Source of the DNA: Bacteroidales bacterium
Lineage (GTDB): Bacteria; Bacteroidota; Bacteroidia; Bacteroidales; AUK083
Length of the DNA: 64,000 nt
Assembly: GCA_021158345.1 (NCBI GenBank)
Contig: JAGGUV010000093.1
Span: 57 to 64,056, forward strand
Direction of reading: 5' to 3'
The notes under the pieces were generated by a model. That model was not told the DNA's origin. It worked only from the letters and a program-made list of their open reading frames with translations, and did no database searches. Shown here one piece after another: positions 7,259-50,408 of this stretch (position 1 is its first letter; each line of letters opens with the position of its first letter). The position numbers were made by a program, and so were the translations under genes.

Positions 7259-8500
7259 TTATTCAAACTCTGCTTTAAGTATTCTTAAAACTTCTAAAAT
7301 AGTTTCTTCTTCAAGATCTGTTCTGTGTATTAAATCTTTAACACTAATTTCTAAAACACTTTTTGCTGTATCACAGCCAATATTTTTTAATTCGTCAATA
7401 ATCCACTGATCTATTTCATCAGAGAATTCTTGAAGATCGACATCTTCATTTTCAGCGGAACTATCCACATCACGATAAACATCAATTTCATAACCTGTAA
7501 GTTTACCTGCTAACTTAATATTATAACCACCTTTACCAATTGCTAAGGAAATCTGATCAGGTTTTAAATAAACTTCAGCTTTTTTGTTTTTCTCATCAAT
7601 TTTAATTGAAGAAATTTTAGCAGGGCTTAAAGCTCTTGTAATATATAAAGTTGGATTATTTGTATAATTAATCACATCAATATTTTCATTACCTAATTCA
7701 CGAACAATACCATGAATTCTTGAACCTTTCATTCCAACACAAGCTCCTACAGGGTCAATTCTGTCATCATACGATTCTACAGCAATTTTAGCTCTTTCAC
7801 CCGGTTCTCTAACAATATTTTTAATAGTAATTAAGCCGTCAAAAACCTCAGGCACTTCAATTTCAAATAATTTTTCAAGAAATACAGGAGAAGTACGCGA
7901 GAGAATAATAACAGGATTATTATTTCTCATATCAACCTTAGAAACAACAGCACGAACAGTATCACCTTTTTTGAAATAATCTGAAGGTATTTGTTCTCTT
8001 TTTGGCAGAACAAGTTCAATATCATCATCATCTAATATTAATATTTCTTTTTTCCAAATCTGATACACATCACCTGTAATAATATCACCAATTTTATTTT
8101 TATATTTTTGATAGATGTTATTTTTTTCAAATTCATGAATTTTTGAGACAAGAGTTTGACGAATATTTAAAATTTCTCTTCTTCCAAAATCAGACATTTT
8201 TAGTTCTTCAGATGCTTCTTCTCCGATTTCAAAATCAGGTTCAAGTTTAATTGCCTCTGAATATGCAATTTGGGTATTATTGTCTTCAACTTCTCCATCT
8301 TCAACAATTTCTCGATATCTTAAAATCTGAAGGTCTCCTCTGTCGATATTTACAATGATATCAAAATTTGCATCATCACCATATTTCTTTTTAAGCACAA
8401 GCCTAAAAACCTCTTCGATGATACGCATCATTGTTTCACGATTGATATTTTTAAATTCTTTAAACTCTGAAAAAGTCTCAACTAAATTCATATGTTCCAT
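7259..8500 (-). CDS. nusA: transcription termination/antitermination factor NusA
   Basis: 413 aa with S1 and KH domain motifs (GACVGMKGSRI, AIGKGGYNIKLA). Lies between rimP and infB. The start may instead be the ATG 9 nt downstream (MNLVETF...). Confidence 0.95.
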   Translation of the reverse strand: MEHMNLVETFSEFKEFKNINRETMMRIIEEVFRLVLKKKYGDDANFDIIVNIDRGDLQILRYREIVEDGEVEDNNTQIAYSEAIKLEPDFEIGEEASEELKMSDFGRREILNIRQTLVSKIHEFEKNNIYQKYKNKIGDIITGDVYQIWKKEILILDDDDIELVLPKREQIPSDYFKKGDTVRAVVSKVDMRNNNPVIILSRTSPVFLEKLFEIEVPEVFDGLITIKNIVREPGERAKIAVESYDDRIDPVGACVGMKGSRIHGIVRELGNENIDVINYTNNPTLYITRALSPAKISSIKIDEKNKKAEVYLKPDQISLAIGKGGYNIKLAGKLTGYEIDVYRDVDSSAENEDVDLQEFSDEIDQWIIDELKNIGCDTAKSVLEISVKDLIHRTDLEEETILEVLRILKAEFE

Positions 8501-9458: not shown

Positions 9459-12400
9459 ATGAAAAATTATAAAAGAGCAAATAATATTATTGGATGGGTA
9501 ATATTTTTTATTGCAACATTTGTATATTTATTAACTATTGAACCAACAGCAAGTTGGTGGGACTGTGGCGAATATATCTCTACTGCATTTAAACTTCAGG
9601 TAGGTCATCCACCTGGAGCGCCTTTTTTTCAGTTACTTGGTAGATTTTTTTCTTTATTAGCCTTTGGTAACCTCTTACACGTTGCTAAAATGATTAATAT
9701 AATGTCTGCGCTTTCAAGTAGCTTTACTATTTTATTTTTATTCTGGACAATAACAGCTTTAGCAAAAAAAATAGCATTAAAACAAGGTGAGCTATCTAAA
9801 GCTCAACAATATATTATTTTTGGTAGTGGTATTGTAGGTGCTTTAGCTTACACTTTTTCAGATTCATTTTGGTTTTCTGCTGTTGAAGGCGAAGTATATG
9901 CAATGTCGTCATTTTTTACTGCATTCGTATTTTGGGCGATATTAAAATGGGATGAAGTTGCTGATGATAAAAATTCAACACGATGGCTTATCCTAATTGC
10001 TTATTTTATAGGTTTATCAATTGGTGTACATTTATTAAATTTACTTGCAATACCTGCTATTTCGTTTGTATTCTATTTTAAAAAATACAAACCTTCATGG
10101 AAAGGAATAATAATTACAGCTGTTATTTCTATCCTTATTCTTGCATTTATTATGTATGGTGTAATACCTGAAATAGTTAATTTATTTGCTAAAACAGAAT
10201 TGTTATTTGTCAATTCATTAGGTTTTCCTTTTAATACAGGTACAGTATTTTTCGCTTTAATATTAATAGGTTTTATTGTTTTCGGGTTATTATTTACAGG
10301 TAAAAAAGATTCTAAAAAAATTATTTCTACTGTATTCATAATTTTATCGTCAATATTCACTTTATTAATTTTTATTGCAAGTTCCTCAGCAGGCAATTTT
10401 TTTATTCGTCTGATTATATGTTCTTTATTAGTACTCTTTTTCTATAAATTTCAAAAGAAAAAAGCAATCCTAAATTCAATTATACTTGGATTTACATTTC
10501 TTCTTATTGGTTATTCTTCATTTTTATTAATAATAATACGTTCAAATGCTAATACACCTATAAATGAAAACAGCCCAAAGGATGCTATTAGTTTGCTCTC
10601 ATACCTGAATAGAGAACAATACGGTGACTGGCCGTTATTTTACGGACCTTATTATAATGCTCCTTTAGACCAGAAAAAACCTTATTTAGACGGCACCCCT
10701 ATTTATATTAAGGATAATAAAACAGGTAAATATGTAATTACTGACGATAGAAAATCAACTATATCAAATTATGATTCAAGATTTTGTACTATTTTTCCAA
10801 GAATGTGGAGCTCACAAAAAAAAGAACACGAAAGAGCTTATAAATACTGGGGAGGAAAAGGCGGTATTCCTATAAAAATTGAAAAAGATGATGGTTCAAC
10901 ACAAACCATTTATAAACCTACATTTGGTCAGAATCTAAGATATTTTTTTAATTATCAGATAGGACATATGTATGTCCGTTATTTTATGTGGAATTTTGTT
11001 GGCAGACAAAATAATATCGAAGAAGGCAATTATAGTGTAAAAAATGGCAACTGGATAAGTGGTATTAATTTTATAGATAAAATGAGGGTGGGAGATCAAA
11101 AAAATCTACCTGAAAATATGAAAAATAATGCACATAATACTTTTTATTTTTTACCATTAATTTTAGGATTAATAGGTCTGTTTTATCACATTAAAAAAAG
11201 TCCTAACGAATCTCTTGTTGTAGGATTACTTTTTATTATGACAGGCTTGGCAATAGTTGTTTATCTTAATCAATATCCTTATCAGCCTCGTGAAAGAGAT
11301 TATGCTTATGCAGCTTCGTTTTATGCTTTTGCAATATGGATAGGACTTGGCGTTTTAGCAATTTTTAATTTCTTTAAAAAGAAACATAAAACACCTTTAA
11401 CTGCAATTTTAATAAGTGCTGTATGCCTTGTTCTTGTACCTGGGATTATGGCACAACAAGGCTGGGATGACCACGACAGATCAGGAAAATACGCAGCACG
11501 TGACTTCGCTGCTAATTATTTAAACTCCTGTGAACCCAATGCTATTCTTTTTACTAATGGTGATAATGACACTTTCCCTCTTTGGTATGCCCAAGAAGTT
11601 GAAGGTATTAGAACTGATGTAAGAGTTGTAAACTTTATGCTGGCTTCAGGTGACTGGTATATCCACCAACTAAGTAAAAAAGTTTATGATTCCGATGCTT
11701 TGACTTTCACCTTAACTCCTGAACAATATAATAAAGGTGTTAACGAAATAATTCCATACATCAATAGAAATGTTAAAGGATATTTTGAACTTAAAGATGT
11801 TATAAATTTTATTGCTAACGAAAATACTAAGTTGCCTATTTCGGAGAATAAAAAAATAAATTTCATACCAACAAAAAAATTAAAGTTAGTAATTGACTCT
11901 GCCACTGTAGTGAATAATGGTATTGTGCCAAAAAATATGGCAGATAAAATTGTTAAAGAAATTAAATGGGATTTAGGTACTAACTACATATATAAAAATG
12001 GATTAATGCTTTTGGATTTAATTGCAACAAACAATTGGAAACGACCAATATATTTTGCAAACCCATCTACATTATCAAAATATCTTGATGTAGATAAATA
12101 TTGTCATCTCGAAGGTGTTGTATATAAATTTATGCCTGTAAAAGCAACTACAGGTTATTTAAAAAGCAGAGGAGGTATTTCTGTTGACAGATGTTATGAT
12201 ATTCTTATGAATAAATGTAAGTGGGGAAATCTTAACAGCCCTGATGTTAATGTTGACAGAGAAAGTTATAGAAACTCATTTATTCCTAAACAAGACTACT
12301 TACGTCTTGCAGATGCTTTGTTAGAAGAAAATAAAAATGATTCTGCCACTGCTGTTCTTGACAAATGTCTTGAATTTTTCCCGGGTGAGAAATTTCCTTA

Positions 12401-12677
12401 TGATGTATTTATGTTGCCATTTGTAGAAGCCTATTACAAAGCCGGAGCTATTGATAAAGCTAATAATTTAGCTGAAAAAATGGCTAATATTTATGATGAA
12501 GATATCAGATATATTAATTCGTTAAGCCATAGGATTGCTAATGGCTATTCTGAAGATGTTCAACAGGCTTTTGGAATTTTGCAAAGACTATCACAACTGA
12601 CTAAACAATATAAACAAGACAAATTACATAAAAAAATTGACGATATGTTTAATTCAAATCTTAAATTTTTAAGATAA
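9459..12677 (+). CDS. DUF2723-family polytopic membrane protein (GT-C/PMT-like glycosyltransferase fold) with C-terminal helical-repeat domain
   Basis: 1072 aa with many TM helices. The N-terminal motif TASWWDCGEYISTAFKLQVGHPPGAPFFQLLGRFF is characteristic of DUF2723 proteins. Confidence 0.7.
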   Translation: MKNYKRANNIIGWVIFFIATFVYLLTIEPTASWWDCGEYISTAFKLQVGHPPGAPFFQLLGRFFSLLAFGNLLHVAKMINIMSALSSSFTILFLFWTITALAKKIALKQGELSKAQQYIIFGSGIVGALAYTFSDSFWFSAVEGEVYAMSSFFTAFVFWAILKWDEVADDKNSTRWLILIAYFIGLSIGVHLLNLLAIPAISFVFYFKKYKPSWKGIIITAVISILILAFIMYGVIPEIVNLFAKTELLFVNSLGFPFNTGTVFFALILIGFIVFGLLFTGKKDSKKIISTVFIILSSIFTLLIFIASSSAGNFFIRLIICSLLVLFFYKFQKKKAILNSIILGFTFLLIGYSSFLLIIIRSNANTPINENSPKDAISLLSYLNREQYGDWPLFYGPYYNAPLDQKKPYLDGTPIYIKDNKTGKYVITDDRKSTISNYDSRFCTIFPRMWSSQKKEHERAYKYWGGKGGIPIKIEKDDGSTQTIYKPTFGQNLRYFFNYQIGHMYVRYFMWNFVGRQNNIEEGNYSVKNGNWISGINFIDKMRVGDQKNLPENMKNNAHNTFYFLPLILGLIGLFYHIKKSPNESLVVGLLFIMTGLAIVVYLNQYPYQPRERDYAYAASFYAFAIWIGLGVLAIFNFFKKKHKTPLTAILISAVCLVLVPGIMAQQGWDDHDRSGKYAARDFAANYLNSCEPNAILFTNGDNDTFPLWYAQEVEGIRTDVRVVNFMLASGDWYIHQLSKKVYDSDALTFTLTPEQYNKGVNEIIPYINRNVKGYFELKDVINFIANENTKLPISENKKINFIPTKKLKLVIDSATVVNNGIVPKNMADKIVKEIKWDLGTNYIYKNGLMLLDLIATNNWKRPIYFANPSTLSKYLDVDKYCHLEGVVYKFMPVKATTGYLKSRGGISVDRCYDILMNKCKWGNLNSPDVNVDRESYRNSFIPKQDYLRLADALLEENKNDSATAVLDKCLEFFPGEKFPYDVFMLPFVEAYYKAGAIDKANNLAEKMANIYDEDIRYINSLSHRIANGYSEDVQQAFGILQRLSQLTKQYKQDKLHKKIDDMFNSNLKFLR

Positions 12678-12776
12678 TTAATCTTGGTTTTGTGAATGTT
12701 TTATTCTAAACAAAAAAAGGAAATTTGTAATCTATAAAGATTTAATTATAAATTTTCTTTTTCTATTTATTTTATT

Positions 12777-12985
12777 GGTACTACCACGAATTTAGTGGAA
12801 TGTTGACAAATGCGAAAATGCTTAAATGCGAAAATACAAAAACAAAATATTGTCTATAACAAATCCTTCATTAACTGATATTTAATTGTTTTTAAATATT
12901 TAAGCATTAGACATTTAAGCATTATAAGTAAGCTGTTTGATAGAATCACAGAAAAATTATTTTCCATTAAAATAACAGTAGAACC
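12777..12985 (+). mobile_element. MITE-like non-autonomous element, copy 1 (209 bp)
   Basis: Ends are GGTACTAC...GTAGAACC (8-bp TIR, 7/8). Perfect 8-bp direct duplication ATTTTATT at 12769-12776 and 12986-12993. No ORF. A homologous inverted copy lies at 30723-30928. Confidence 0.8.
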
Positions 12986-13021
12986 ATTTTATTAAATAAG
13001 ATTTTTAATGGATATATAATT

Positions 13022-14362
13022 TTATTTAAAGGAATAACATATTCCAAAAGAACAATTAAAAATATAAGGATAATATTTTATTATAGTTTTTTTATTAATG
13101 GATGACAAATAATATTTAAAACTTGGTTCAAGTACTAATGACATATTATTGTAAATATTATACTCAAGCCCTAATCCAACAACACCATTATAAATAAATG
13201 ATTTAAGTCCGCCGGCTCCGTCAAGTTCAATTGACTCATTGTCTTTTTCGAGATATGTATTATTATTAATTAATACACCAGTACTTATTCCTCCAATAAT
13301 ATTAAACTTAAATGATTTATCGATAACTGTATATTTTACTTCAAAAGGAATTTCAATATATTTTAATTTCTGAGTTAATCCAAGGTCTGACAGATATTTA
13401 AAATTAGTGCCATCAATTAAAGTATCAGTATCAACTTTGGAAGAATTAATAATACTCATTTTACTATTACTAATTTTAATGTTTCCAATAGAAGTAGGAA
13501 TATTTATTGAATTATCCGGGGACTTATAAGAAACAATCTCATTATTTTTTTGTCCTAAAGATGAAAAGTTAACACCTGACAAAAAGCTAAAATTACTTTT
13601 AGTATTATAACGTATTTTCAAACCATAAGAAAAAGCATATAATCCTTTTTCATTTTCGTTAAACTCTTGTTTTAAAGCCACAGTACTATAGCTAACATCA
13701 TTAAGCTCAATATTTCTGTATGAGTATCCTGAAGTAAAATCTCCAACAACAGACCATCTGATAATTTCAGGTTTATTAATCATTATATCTTCAGAAATAA
13801 AATCATAAATAACATATTCAGATCTTTTATTAATCTGTTGTATTTGAATTAAATTTGAATTGTTTAATAAATTGACTGCAACAATCTGTTTTGGTAAATT
13901 TTCAATATTGCTAATCCTTAACTGAATTTTAGTGTTAGAATTTTTACTATTGGCAATTAATTTTTTATTGATATTTTTTTTATCTGAAGGAGTTATTTTT
14001 TTGGCAACAGCAAATTCTTTTTTTGAGACTTGTAGTTTTTTTATGTTTTTCGGTTTGTCAGATTTTTTATTAGTATTATATTTATTTAAAATAAGACTAT
14101 CTTTTAGAATTGATTTTTCAATGTTATTTTCTGATATTTTTTTATCAATATTGTTATCAGGGACAAATAAAAATATCATAGAAAATGTAAATAAAATAAT
14201 CACAGAAGCAGCAATCCATTTTATTCTGTTAATTCTTCTCCGTCTGACATCAAAAATAAGTTCTTCTTTAATATCTTCCCAGATATTATCAGAAGGTTTT
14301 TCTGAAAAATTTTTTAATTTTTCAGAAAACAAATTATCAATATCATTTATTTTATTTTTCAT
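13022..14362 (-). CDS. putative anti-sigma factor with single TM helix and C-terminal outer-membrane beta-barrel-like domain
   Basis: 446 aa. Its start overlaps the stop of the upstream ECF sigma gene by 11 nt. N-terminal cytoplasmic segment, then TM (WIAASVIILFTFSMIFLF). The C-terminal half has alternating beta-strand-like sequence ending in ...FGICYSFK. Confidence 0.5.
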   Translation of the reverse strand: MKNKINDIDNLFSEKLKNFSEKPSDNIWEDIKEELIFDVRRRRINRIKWIAASVIILFTFSMIFLFVPDNNIDKKISENNIEKSILKDSLILNKYNTNKKSDKPKNIKKLQVSKKEFAVAKKITPSDKKNINKKLIANSKNSNTKIQLRISNIENLPKQIVAVNLLNNSNLIQIQQINKRSEYVIYDFISEDIMINKPEIIRWSVVGDFTSGYSYRNIELNDVSYSTVALKQEFNENEKGLYAFSYGLKIRYNTKSNFSFLSGVNFSSLGQKNNEIVSYKSPDNSINIPTSIGNIKISNSKMSIINSSKVDTDTLIDGTNFKYLSDLGLTQKLKYIEIPFEVKYTVIDKSFKFNIIGGISTGVLINNNTYLEKDNESIELDGAGGLKSFIYNGVVGLGLEYNIYNNMSLVLEPSFKYYLSSINKKTIIKYYPYIFNCSFGICYSFK

Positions 14363-15029: not shown

Positions 15030-15129
15030 GATGTAATTTTTAGTTAAAAGGTTGCGTTATAATGATTAATTTTTCTATTATCAATAAAAAAAATTATATA
15101 AACGCAACCTTTTGCAGCCACATTACATC
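15030..15129. promoter_or_regulatory. bipartite inverted repeat (GATGTAAT-N8-AAAAGGTTGCGTT / mirror) in a divergent promoter region
   Basis: Left arm 15030-15058, right arm 15101-15129. The 13-bp inner blocks and 8-bp outer blocks are perfectly complementary; the 8-nt spacers differ. Confidence 0.6.
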
Positions 15130-28482: not shown

Positions 28483-29952
28483 CTAATCTAAAAAACCTGC
28501 ATGATCAAGTAAAGTCCAACCCTTAGCCCAATTATCAGCATTTGGGTTAAAAGCGCCTTTATAATCAACATTTTGAAAATCTGACGGGTACACGGCTAAA
28601 TTATCGGAGACATCATTTGAAGGTACAGGATTTAAACCTCCTGAACTATTTATTTCAAAAGATATACCTGGGTTGTAAACAACATTATTTGCAATAGTAA
28701 AATAATTTTGCCAATCAGATAAAATATCAGGTTCATAACCATCATCTCCACTTAGTTTAAAAATACTTTGAGCAGTTCCTTCGGCTACTTGCCAAAATAT
28801 ATTATTTTTGACTTCAAGGTTACCATTTTTCCATTGTAAATAGCTGTTATCGCTACCATTTAACCATTCAATATCAACACCTTTAGCCTGATTGACAAAA
28901 ATTGAGTTAGCATATTTACCGCCTGCATTATCTCTAAAAGTTATTAAACGTTTACCTGCGTCAGAGCCACGACCAATATAAGTTACATTATAAATAAGAG
29001 GAATTGAATAAGGTTCTCCAAACTCATTATCTTTAGGTCCGCCATCATGTTCTCCAATTCTGTCACCATTATCAGTGCCCTGAACAGCAAACCAAAATTG
29101 GCCATAGCCTCTAAAACTTTCATCATAATCAAAACAATCGTCTCCATTAAAAGCCGAAATCAAATGGGAACATCGTACAGTACCTCCAAACCATTCAAAG
29201 CCATCATCTTTATTAGCAATAACTTCAACATAATCAATAATAGTACCGCTACCAACACATCCCAAAGTCAAACCATTTATTTCGTTGCCTTCTCCAATAT
29301 CTGTTCCACCATAACGTATAGAGACATATTTTAAAATACCTGAATTATCATAATCATCATTTCCACCATATAAGCCTCTAATTTCAGTAGTAGGTATTCC
29401 TTCAATAGATTTATCAACACTAGGATTATTAGAAGAAGTTCTGCCTAAAAGAATAAGCCCGCCCCAAAGACCTCTTGTGAGAGTAGGCAAATTATCAGCA
29501 AAAACAACTTTTGAAAGAATCTTATTATATCTGATACCATCAGCTTCAGCAGTAAAAATTATTGGGTTATCGGCTGTTCCTTCAGCAATAATTTTGGCTC
29601 CGCGTGCGACAATAAATGCACTGGCATTCTCACCCTGTCCTGATTTACCCTTCAAAATAGTACCCGGTTCAATAGTTAAAATATCACCTTGGTTAACAAA
29701 AACTAAACCATTTGCAACCCATGTTTTATCGTGAGTAAAAGTAATAGTACCTGTACCTTTACCATAGTCTTTTATTGTTACTATTGTCTCAATAGTATCA
29801 TTATCTTCAATCAAATACGTTTCTTTGTACTCAGTATCCTGAATTTCCGGTACCGGTGGCTCATTAGGGTCATCTTTTTTATCACAAGAGGTGAAAGCAA
29901 AAAATAATGCTGCAAAAAACAATGCTAAAAATTTTAAATTTTTCTTTTTCAT
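28483..29952 (-). CDS. conserved hypothetical surface lipoprotein (beta-helix-like), first gene of the receptor operon
   Basis: 489 aa counted from the ATG at 29952. Lipoprotein signal ...FFAFTSC. Repetitive Gly/Asp-rich segments (...GTADNPIIFT..., ...DDGFEWFGG..., ...GDDCFDYD...). C-terminal ...NWAKGWT... No function recognised. Confidence 0.5.
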   Translation of the reverse strand: MKKKNLKFLALFFAALFFAFTSCDKKDDPNEPPVPEIQDTEYKETYLIEDNDTIETIVTIKDYGKGTGTITFTHDKTWVANGLVFVNQGDILTIEPGTILKGKSGQGENASAFIVARGAKIIAEGTADNPIIFTAEADGIRYNKILSKVVFADNLPTLTRGLWGGLILLGRTSSNNPSVDKSIEGIPTTEIRGLYGGNDDYDNSGILKYVSIRYGGTDIGEGNEINGLTLGCVGSGTIIDYVEVIANKDDGFEWFGGTVRCSHLISAFNGDDCFDYDESFRGYGQFWFAVQGTDNGDRIGEHDGGPKDNEFGEPYSIPLIYNVTYIGRGSDAGKRLITFRDNAGGKYANSIFVNQAKGVDIEWLNGSDNSYLQWKNGNLEVKNNIFWQVAEGTAQSIFKLSGDDGYEPDILSDWQNYFTIANNVVYNPGISFEINSSGGLNPVPSNDVSDNLAVYPSDFQNVDYKGAFNPNADNWAKGWTLLDHAGFLD

Positions 29953-29981
29953 AATTTTATAAGTTTTAATTATTAATAGCA

Positions 29982-29989
29982 CAAAAATA
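29982..29989 (-). promoter_or_regulatory. -7 box (TAnnTTTG) for the lipoprotein/receptor operon
   Basis: Minus strand TATTTTTG lies 30 nt upstream of the ATG at 29952. Confidence 0.4.
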
Positions 29990-30060
29990 TTCTTTGATAA
30001 TAAAATATATTTTAAGCTTGAATTAAGTTATTGTTAAATTTTTTAAAAAATTGAAATAAC

Positions 30061-30083
30061 AAAAAAAAATGCTGTAAAGCATT
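30061..30083 (-). terminator. candidate intrinsic terminator on the minus strand inside the ORF-free gap
   Basis: Minus strand reads AATGCT-TTAC-AGCATT followed by about 7 T. The stem is short (6 bp, 2 GC pairs) but the U-tract is long. Confidence 0.4.
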
Positions 30084-30722
30084 AAAAAAGAGTGTATAAT
30101 AAAAAAAAACTAAAAAAATCAATATTAAAATTACTATCTTTAAATCACCTGCTTAAAGTATAATAGCTCATAGTTTAGTCTGAATTATTCGTAGGTTTGC
30201 TATAAACTAATTCAGGTTATCCACAACAAAAAAAATTTTAATTTTGTAAATAAAGCGCAGCAAGATATTAGCTTTTCATATAGTCGTCAGATTAATTCAG
30301 GATTCTGTCTTTTAAGTTTCAGACATCCTGACCCGTATTTTGATTATTAGAGATTTACAATACTTGTTTTCGTAAAATTCATTGTCGCAATTATCGTAAT
30401 AATAACAATTAGAAAAGTCCAAAACCTTGATTATCATCTGTTGCATATAATAATTACGGTGGGGTTGTTTTTTTTGCGATAGTCAATTTTACTATGAATC
30501 AGGAGTTCTGATATTTAGTAATTCATTACTCATCATTACTTCTAAAATCAAAAATCGATAATTGGTGTTCTTAAATCAATTTGTTTATAGCATTGCTACA
30601 TTAGGAATTAATCGGATTAGGTGAATTAATATTAATTTAAAATTTGTGGCATAAAAAAGCCTGCGGATTTATGGACTAAATAGTGTTTGCCAATAATGTG
30701 ATGTTATAACAATTTAAAAAAT

Positions 30723-30928
30723 GGTTCTACTGTTATTTTAATGGAAAATAATTTTTCTGCGATTCTATCAAACAGCTTACTTATAATGCTTAAATGCATA
30801 AATGTTTCAAAACAATTATATTATAGACAACATTTTGTTTTTGTATCAGAACTGTTTTTGTATTTTCGCATTTAAGCATTTTATCATTTTCGCATTTGTC
30901 AATATTCCACTAAATTCGTGGTAGTACC
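30723..30928 (-). mobile_element. MITE-like non-autonomous element, copy 2 (206 bp, inverted relative to copy 1)
   Basis: Plus strand GGTTCTAC...GTAGTACC. Perfect 8-bp duplication TAAAAAAT at 30715-30722 and 30929-30936. Termini are near-identical to copy 1; the centre differs by indels. Confidence 0.8.
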
Positions 30929-31025
30929 TAAAAAATTAAATTTGAGAATTATATTGTATTGATTAACTTTTGATTAGAACAGAAATCTGAAATTTCATTA
31001 ATATGATAGATTTTATAGACAGACG

Positions 31026-31721
31026 CTAAATAAATTTATAGCCTATACCTTTGAAAGTAATAATATGTTCTTCGCCTATTTTCTCTCTTAATTTTCTTAT
31101 ATAAACATCAATAGTTCTGTCACCGACAATGACATCAGTTCCCCATAAACAAGAGTATATTTCATCACGAGTAAAGACTTTTTCCTGTTTGGAAACTAAT
31201 AGTAAAAGAAGTTCATATTCTTTTTTAGGTAAAATTATTATTTTATTTTTAACAAGGACTTCATACTTTTCTTTATCAATAATAATATCACCTCTGTTAA
31301 TAATGTTATCATTAACAGAGATGTCAGATGGGGTAAATGCAGGATTTCGTTTAAGAAGAGCCTTAACCCTGCTTATCAATATTTTAGGTTTTATAGGTTT
31401 AGTAATATAATCGTCAGCGCCGGCATCGAAGCCTGCTATTTGAGAATAATCTTCACCGCGAGCTGTTAAAAATACTATTAATGTATTATTAAGTTTAGGA
31501 ATTTTTCTTAATTCCTCACAAGTTTCAACACCATCAATGTCTGGCATCATTATATCTAAAATTATCAAATGCGGTAAAATTTTATTAGCAATTTTAATAG
31601 CATCTTTTCCATTATTTGCAGTATAAACAAGAAAACCTTCTTTTTTTAAATTATAGCTTAAAAACTCAATTACATCTTGTTCGTCATCTACTAATAATAT
31701 TTTATATCCAATATTTTTCAT
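31026..31721 (-). CDS. OmpR/PhoB-family response regulator
   Basis: 231 aa. Receiver domain (LVDDEQD, DIMMPDIDG) plus winged-helix output (...RTIDVYIRKLREKI...GIGYKF). Confidence 0.92.
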   Translation of the reverse strand: MKNIGYKILLVDDEQDVIEFLSYNLKKEGFLVYTANNGKDAIKIANKILPHLIILDIMMPDIDGVETCEELRKIPKLNNTLIVFLTARGEDYSQIAGFDAGADDYITKPIKPKILISRVKALLKRNPAFTPSDISVNDNIINRGDIIIDKEKYEVLVKNKIIILPKKEYELLLLLVSKQEKVFTRDEIYSCLWGTDVIVGDRTIDVYIRKLREKIGEEHIITFKGIGYKFI

Positions 31722-37315: not shown

Positions 37316-37443
37316 CCTTATATCCGCAAACTAAATCTTATGCAAAGCCGGACTGCACGCCATTGTTGTATATGCTCGCTCAGACCTTTCAAGGGCTAAG
37401 TCTGCGATGTTCTACACTGTGCAACGCCAACACTGACGTACAT
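37316..37443 (+). repeat. GC-enriched intergenic module, copy 1 (paralogue at 50272-50408)
   Basis: Ungapped 71-nt arm (53/71 identical) and 48-nt arm (35/48 identical) shared with the second locus, in the same orientation. Confidence 0.7.
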
Positions 37444-50271: not shown

Positions 50272-50408
50272 CCTTATATCTATAAACTAAATCTTATACA
50301 AATTGAAACTGAATGTCATTGTTGGGAATGCATGCTCAGACTTTTTTTTTGTAATAAGACTTACGCCTGATATGCTCTTAGCTGTGCTACGCCAACATTG
50401 ACGGATAT
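50272..50408 (+). repeat. intergenic module, copy 2 (paralogue of 37316-37443)
   Basis: Same two arms as copy 1, with an 18-nt T-rich spacer. Internal inverted repeat GTCATTGTTGG (50315-25) / CCAACATTGAC (50392-402). Confidence 0.7.

Follow-up and report, generated by a model that had tools for sequence, protein, structure and literature searches.

Two related sequences of little more than 200 bp lie 17.7 kb apart, in inverse orientation, in an uncultured, AT-rich Bacteroidales genome (G+C content 28% in the window, i.e., the whole stretch of 64,000 nt analysed here), and each is bordered on both sides by its own perfect 8-bp repeat. This raises the question of whether both were inserted where they now stand and, if so, which enzyme recognises their ends. 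The earlier note on this DNA described a MITE-like, non-autonomous element and left the family of its parent IS unnamed. The copies, duplications and parent IS described below support the first description and supply the missing name: both sequences are very probably copies of a MITE, whose imperfect ends of ~24 nt would be recognised by the ISL3-family DDE transposase of a 1283-bp IS.

Two Copies With Separate Target-Site Duplications

Reading the sequence directly confirmed every coordinate given before for copy 1 and its duplication, and, together with alignment, confirmed a second copy with a different perfect duplication at the same element boundaries (Table 1). The first and last letters of copy 1 are GGTACTAC and GTAGAACC (in longer terminal reads, GGTACTACCACGAATTTAGTGG at the start and CCATTAAAATAACAGTAGAACC at the end). 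In a pairwise alignment that included the flanks, the likeness between the copies is confined exactly to these boundaries, and end probes of 25–26 nt, with up to three mismatches allowed, both match just two places in the 64 kb, where shuffled sequences lead one to expect none. The copies are ~82% identical, with indels, which suggests that they are either old or derived from different source copies. Compared with the consensus of their subfamily (~235 bp), they differ by indels of ~16–27 nt and both bear deletions, with ~27 nt of the consensus missing from copy 1.

Table 1. Positions of the two element copies, their parts and the genes beside copy 1 in the 64,000-nt window.
Feature	Position	Strand	Basis or remark
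PF11028 gene (formerly DUF2723, now TMEM260-like)	9459-12677	+	Pfam match
TSD of copy 1, left (ATTTTATT)	12769..12776		read directly; identical to 12986-12993
MITE copy 1, 209 bp, ISL3-type ends, no transposase gene	12777..12985	+	sequence, alignment, end probes
Left terminal inverted repeat GGTACTACCACGAATTTAGTGGAA	12777..12800	+	24/24 identical to left end of L133 IS
Direct repeat AAATGCGAAAAT	12808-12819 and 12824-12835
Subterminal inverted repeat, left arm AATGCTTAAATG, within the AAATGCGAAAAT direct repeats	12817..12828	+	reverse complement is 12912-12923
Direct repeat TTTAAGCATT	12899-12908 and 12914-12923
Subterminal inverted repeat, right arm CATTTAAGCATT	12912..12923	+	pairs with 12817..12828 in predicted DNA fold
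Right terminal inverted repeat CCATTAAAATAACAGTAGAACC	12964..12985	+	22/22 identical to right end of L133 IS
TSD of copy 1, right (ATTTTATT)	12986..12993		read directly
Predicted empty site, copy 1			...TTTTCTTTTTCTATTT-ATTTTATT-AAATAAGATTTTTAATGG...
Anti-sigma-like gene	13022-14362	-	no Pfam match; overlaps upstream ECF sigma factor gene
TSD of copy 2, first (TAAAAAAT)	30715..30722		read directly
MITE copy 2, 206 bp, inverted relative to copy 1	30723..30928	-	sequence, alignment, end probes
TSD of copy 2, second (TAAAAAAT)	30929..30936		read directly
Predicted empty site, copy 2			...GATGTTATAACAATT-TAAAAAAT-TAAATTTGAGAATTATATTG...

The two genes beside copy 1 converge on it, as had been described (the 446-aa protein of the window, J7J86_05060, is recorded as a hypothetical protein), and copy 2 lies ~100 nt downstream of a response-regulator gene (31026-31721, minus strand). 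Both insertions are intergenic and are therefore most likely neutral.

Ends and Interior of the Element

Terminal inverted repeats are present as claimed; their length, given before as 8 bp, has to be corrected, and the conservation profile of the family described below extends them to ~24 nt. They start with GGT and are imperfect, with 17 of 24 positions matching in copy 1 and 18 of 24 in the family consensus; in some lineages, the repeat is near-perfect, e.g., where the right end reads CCATTAAATTCGTGGTAGAACC. Further inward, the two internal direct repeats of the original description, AAATGCGAAAAT and TTTAAGCATT, were each found twice, and these two sets of motifs are partly reverse complements of each other. 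The predicted pairing of positions 12817-12828 with 12912-12923 gives the element subterminal in addition to terminal inverted repeats. The statement that the element has no ORF holds for conserved ORFs; taken strictly, chance ORFs of 22–44 aa exist, and these are absent from the sister copies in the subfamily alignment.

The interior of ~160 bp appears to be passenger DNA. It is presumably dispensable for recognition, since neither the ends nor the duplications change in lineages whose interiors are unrelated. A blastn comparison of all MITEs with two full-length IS revealed no convincing likeness between the interiors and the IS, the matches being weak, A/T-rich and 22–55 nt long. Around both copies, a scan for sigma-70 promoters, with a promoter model unsuited to Bacteroidota, scored no higher than shuffled sequences, and a scan for intrinsic terminators gave no excess over shuffles.

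A Family of Copies in Uncultured Bacteria

Left ends of the element are found at more than 130 loci in public genomes and metagenomes. In contigs of bacteria and archaea represented by one genome per species (GTDB representatives), the exact left 22-mer occurs at 16 loci; the hosts are MAGs that carry the labels Bacteroidales, Flavobacteriales, Lentimicrobiaceae, Chlorobiota and Melioribacteraceae, and many of the matches stand at contig ends, as is characteristic of repeats present in many copies. With two degenerate positions allowed, the metagenome scan yielded at least 120 loci. Viral contigs scanned for either end gave no matches.

Complete elements were delimited by matching their right ends to three archetypes, with the flanks left out of account. 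Among the matches listed, this left 77 distinct complete elements, i.e., 76 small ones (71–550 bp) and the 1283-bp IS. The flanking octamers of these 77 elements are identical at all eight positions in 46 cases and at seven of eight in a further 17, while register offsets of −2, −1, +1 and +2 produced no duplication matches at all and permuted flank pairs produced a mean of 0.72 perfect matches (maximum 5). The further copies that the earlier note had named as a check are thus numerous, and their 8-bp duplications are independent of one another. Between about −3 and +10, the targets as reconstructed show a strong A/T bias; they are weakly palindromic, with A favoured at position 1 of the duplication and T at position 8.

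Conservation across 81 elements is near-total at positions 1–24 of the left end and in the last 22–24 positions of the right end, and falls to background level inside. In an all-against-all comparison, the interiors form 18 similarity clusters, of which the type found in the window is the largest in the sample (consensus ~235 bp, as above). The neighbouring genes are different at every locus.

A Parent IS of the ISL3 Family

A full-length IS with the same termini, which had been proposed as a search target, was found. At the locus L133, an IS of 1283 bp is flanked on both sides by AAAATAAT, an 8-bp duplication, and contains a single ORF of 406 aa that begins 53 nt from the left end. The left 24 nt and right 22 nt of this IS are identical to those of the window element, and the last codons of the transposase (P-L-K) together with its TAA stop fall inside the right inverted repeat. 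The 406-aa protein matches Pfam DDE_Tnp_ISL3 (PF01610; E = 8e-65, 219 bits against a cutoff of 23) and HTH_Tnp_ISL3, weakly the ISL3 zinc ribbon, and the NCBIfam equivalog transpos_ISL3 (NF033550; 262.8 bits against a cutoff of 180). Members of the ISL3 family make an 8-bp target duplication and have imperfect, GG-initial terminal inverted repeats of ~15–40 bp. The parent IS shares these traits, with DDE_Tnp_ISL3 scores above the curated thresholds, 8-bp duplications and GG-initial, imperfect repeats of ~24 nt. In the 64-kb window, tblastn with the 406-aa transposase found no ISL3 transposase homologue, in agreement with the earlier observation that the window holds no transposase.

The transposase family comprises 1741 proteins at E ≤ 1e-60, many of them on contigs of ~1.28 kb, which are the IS assembled alone. 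The identical transposase was found on 24 contigs, with the same ends every time; some of these assemblies are chimeric across copies, with the left flank of L142 pairing with the right flank of L143. A relative with 75% identity is present at least three times in a contig of 3.98 Mb, where its ends are GGTTCTACCACGAATTTAATGG … GGGTAGAGCC and its perfect 8-bp duplications AATTAGAA and AAATTAAA. Altogether, full-length IS in L133, L142-L148 and L139-L141 have ends that are identical or near-identical to those of the MITE. Three other loci, L005, L011 and L015, were at first suspected of being long elements and were set aside. In L015, the distant “right end” has four mismatches and no duplication and is probably a chance match, and all that L005 retains is a remnant of the left end, beside gyrB and a gene for a small membrane protein.

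The families IS6/IS26, IS1595 and IS1 also make 8-bp duplications. Mobilisation by one of these, or by another family with GG-initial ends, has to be weighed because the window contains no transposase and because the right end, when read inward (GGTTCT...), bears a loose resemblance to the ends of IS6-family elements; an IS6-like parent had been considered for this reason. However, no full-length element with these ends was found that encodes anything but an ISL3-family transposase, the ends of MITE and ISL3 element agree at 24 of 24 positions on the left and 22 of 22 on the right, and the ISL3 transposase gene itself has its stop codon within the right end. The IS6-like parent was accordingly rejected, the parent ORF being ISL3, and a parent outside the ISL3 family is highly improbable.

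Insertion Sites in Relatives

The contig L138 is syntenic with the region around copy 1, with identities of 86% for the TMEM260-like and 65% for the anti-sigma-like protein. It shows no trace of the element between these two genes, and the flanking intergenic blocks are kept, including the hairpin that follows the stop codon of the upstream gene. The element is therefore not a conserved part of the copy 1 locus. At nearly the same spot, L138 contains an unrelated segment of ~195 nt, so that it offers no clean empty site with a single ATTTTATT. The search for empty sites, which the earlier note had suggested, yielded this relative without the element at copy 1; a clean site with a single duplication was not recovered. 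The ~195-nt segment itself (L138 ~7400-7600, orthologous to window 12760-13000) has TTATTTATA on both sides and no obvious inverted repeats, and no other copy of it was seen among the loci examined; another small insertion, distinct from the MITE, may have hit this A/T-rich spot. No relative with synteny around copy 2 was found, those of the Beta_helix_4 gene (L081, L150-L152) being non-syntenic upstream.

Same-species contigs from two other samples (L137, L096) reach the insertion sites, and both carry the element and break inside it, as expected for a multi-copy repeat; Logan SRR15988955 and JGI Ga0190303 are 99.6% and 99.1% identical to the window, respectively. At the copy 2 site, the same-species Logan contig ends before reaching it. 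Across the same-species contigs of the two samples, no strain polymorphism between filled and empty sites was seen for either window copy. A third copy, truncated at its 3′ end, lies at another locus on L020, a contig from the Ga0190303 sample. Elsewhere, at window position ~18873, the SRR15988955 contig has 663 extra nucleotides (L137 825-1487), a strain-level indel that encodes most of a hypothetical, membrane-like protein of ~221 aa.

These observations also bear on the view that the sequences are conserved non-coding RNA or regulatory DNA native to intergenic regions and were never inserted. Such a view would fit an element that is non-coding and intergenic and whose predicted single-strand fold is better than that of shuffled sequences (z = −3.4 and −2.9). 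However, hairpin-like folding is expected anyway from the terminal and subterminal inverted repeats, neither copy matches Rfam 15 in gathering mode or even at E ≤ 1, the two copies are flanked by separate 8-bp duplications, the same ends enclose ~18 unrelated interiors, the neighbouring genes differ from locus to locus, and the element is absent from the syntenic L138. In the earlier note, a lack of further copies combined with relatives having the same sequence at the site was named as the pattern that would speak for such a conserved element, and this is clearly not the pattern found. The RNA or regulatory reading is thus largely refuted, and its probability is minimal.

That the two copies are the ends of a 17.7-kb composite transposon carrying the genes between them is suggested by their inverted arrangement at this distance with both left ends pointing outward, and is nevertheless scarcely credible, because each copy has its own matching duplication and the outer flanks differ (ATTTTATT vs. 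TAAAAAAT), which indicates two separate insertions, and because synteny with a relative that lacks copy 1 extends over the sigma and anti-sigma genes of the segment and their neighbours.

A Model for Mobilisation and Spread

The MITE is most likely mobilised in trans by an ISL3 transposase. According to this model, the sole functional parts of the element would be the two imperfect inverted repeats of ~24 nt, which would serve as binding and cleavage sites for the transposase, and the enzyme, supplied in trans, would bring both ends together. By analogy with ISPst9, IS1411 and IS31831, the element would probably then move in a copy-out-paste-in manner via a circular intermediate, and inserting it into A/T-rich DNA by staggered cuts 8 bp apart, followed by repair, would generate the 8-bp duplications. 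Circular intermediates have been reported for members of the ISL3 family (bioRxiv 10.1101/2023.06.07.543989; PMC3812183). In L140 (161-2740), two full-length ISL3 copies stand head to tail with 5 bp (ATAAA) between them, an arrangement that resembles a tandem IS dimer or a junction of abutted ends as tied to transposition through circular intermediates; this resemblance is suggestive.

A more far-reaching, rather doubtful idea is that one ISL3 end pair has repeatedly captured unrelated DNA, giving rise to at least 18 separate MITE lineages which, along with an IS that is spreading at present, cross between phyla of the Bacteroidota, Chlorobiota and Ignavibacteriota group. The IS looks active in that dozens of contigs, drawn from different samples, contain the identical transposase. 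If this idea were true, the IS and its MITEs would form an unusually promiscuous transposition system with a broad host range, from which the birth of new MITEs could be understood and which might become a tool for the genetics of Bacteroidota. In a weaker variant of this idea, the conserved interior of the window's subfamily has a function in the host, e.g., as an array of protein-binding sites or as a small RNA.

Comparison With Known Elements

With its small size, inverted repeats, duplications of fixed length, presence at many unrelated sites and an autonomous element with the same ends, the window element has the properties of a MITE. PATEs lack terminal inverted repeats and duplications; they have subterminal hairpins and insert beside a fixed motif of 4–5 nt. 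An IS200/IS605-derived PATE was considered and dismissed, given the inverted repeats and the variable 8-bp duplications present here. Correia elements, RUP, Nezha and ERIC-type sequences are short, non-autonomous, multi-copy and bounded by inverted repeats, and are mostly intergenic; they derive from other IS families (e.g., IS630-type with TA duplication) and have other duplication lengths. Like these, the window element is short, bounded by inverted repeats, multi-copy and intergenic.

The closest counterpart is a 187-nt MITE of Microcystis aeruginosa, which has ISL3-type ends and 8-nt direct repeats and is mobilised by ISL3, and 8-nt repeats were also described for an ISL3 IS (PMC11448079). 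Like the Microcystis MITE, the window element is small and non-coding, with 8-nt direct repeats and the potential to form stem-loops (PMC11448079), and its imperfect inverted repeats match those of an ISL3-family IS (~1.2 kb for the Microcystis IS in the same data). In contrast, the termini differ (GGCTCTTCG... there and GGTACTACCACGAATTTAGTGG here), the hosts are Cyanobacteria there and MAGs of the Bacteroidota, Chlorobiota and Ignavibacteriota type here, and many unrelated interiors occur under one end pair here. MITEs driven by ISL3 elements and flanked by 8-bp duplications have therefore already been described; what sets this family apart is the end sequence, the host range and the many interiors. 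A string search of the literature for the end sequences found no paper containing them.

The parent IS resembles ISL3, IS1411, ISPst9, ISPpu12, IS31831 and ISEc53 in its architecture of Zn-ribbon, HTH and DDE_Tnp_ISL3 domains and its length of ~1.3 kb, and shares GG-initial imperfect inverted repeats and the 8-bp duplication with the named IS of this family. The window element differs from ISL3-family IS in lacking a transposase gene and has just 22–24 nt per end in common with its parent. Since the parent transposase is at most ~34% identical to the named ISL3 elements in the plasmid collection, e.g., ISEc53, the IS lineage is uncharacterised in the sources searched. No concept is altered by these results, which concern a common, ordinary kind of mobile DNA in an uncultured, AT-rich Bacteroidales genome. 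They define a previously unnamed ISL3 lineage, with ends of 24 nt, an A/T-rich target of 8 bp and a large set of non-autonomous derivatives; moreover, they make it possible to annotate such intergenic repeats correctly in uncultured Bacteroidales and related MAGs, and explain assembly breaks at the positions of the element.

Other Features Near the Copies

Directly after the stop codon of the TMEM260-like gene, positions 12713-12770 of the window form a hairpin (GGAAATTTGTAA … TTACAAATTTCC-like), which is kept in L138 (7612-7657) and is probably the terminator of this gene; the insertion point of copy 1 is directly beyond it. Upstream of the ECF sigma factor gene, positions 15030-15129 contain an imperfect inverted repeat of 44 nt (70% identity) with arms 12 nt apart.

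Adjoining copy 2, the 740 nt at 29983-30722, upstream of the Beta_helix_4 gene (28483-29982, minus strand), contain no ORF of 50 aa or more. An Rfam search of this segment gave nothing at threshold, the only match being a weak one to ES173 at 30620-30657 (26 bits, with the gathering score at 90). In relatives, the stretch at this position is just ~300–370 nt long and has different neighbours. In L049 (4317-4514), a MITE of 198 bp from another interior lineage, with the duplication TCTGTTAA, lies ~100 nt from the orthologue of the response-regulator gene beside copy 2, on its opposite side and in a different gene order, which is probably a coincidence.

The longest direct repeat of the window after the MITE is 74 nt long and relatively G+C-rich; its two copies (37316-37389 and 50272-50345) are 76% identical and 13 kb apart.
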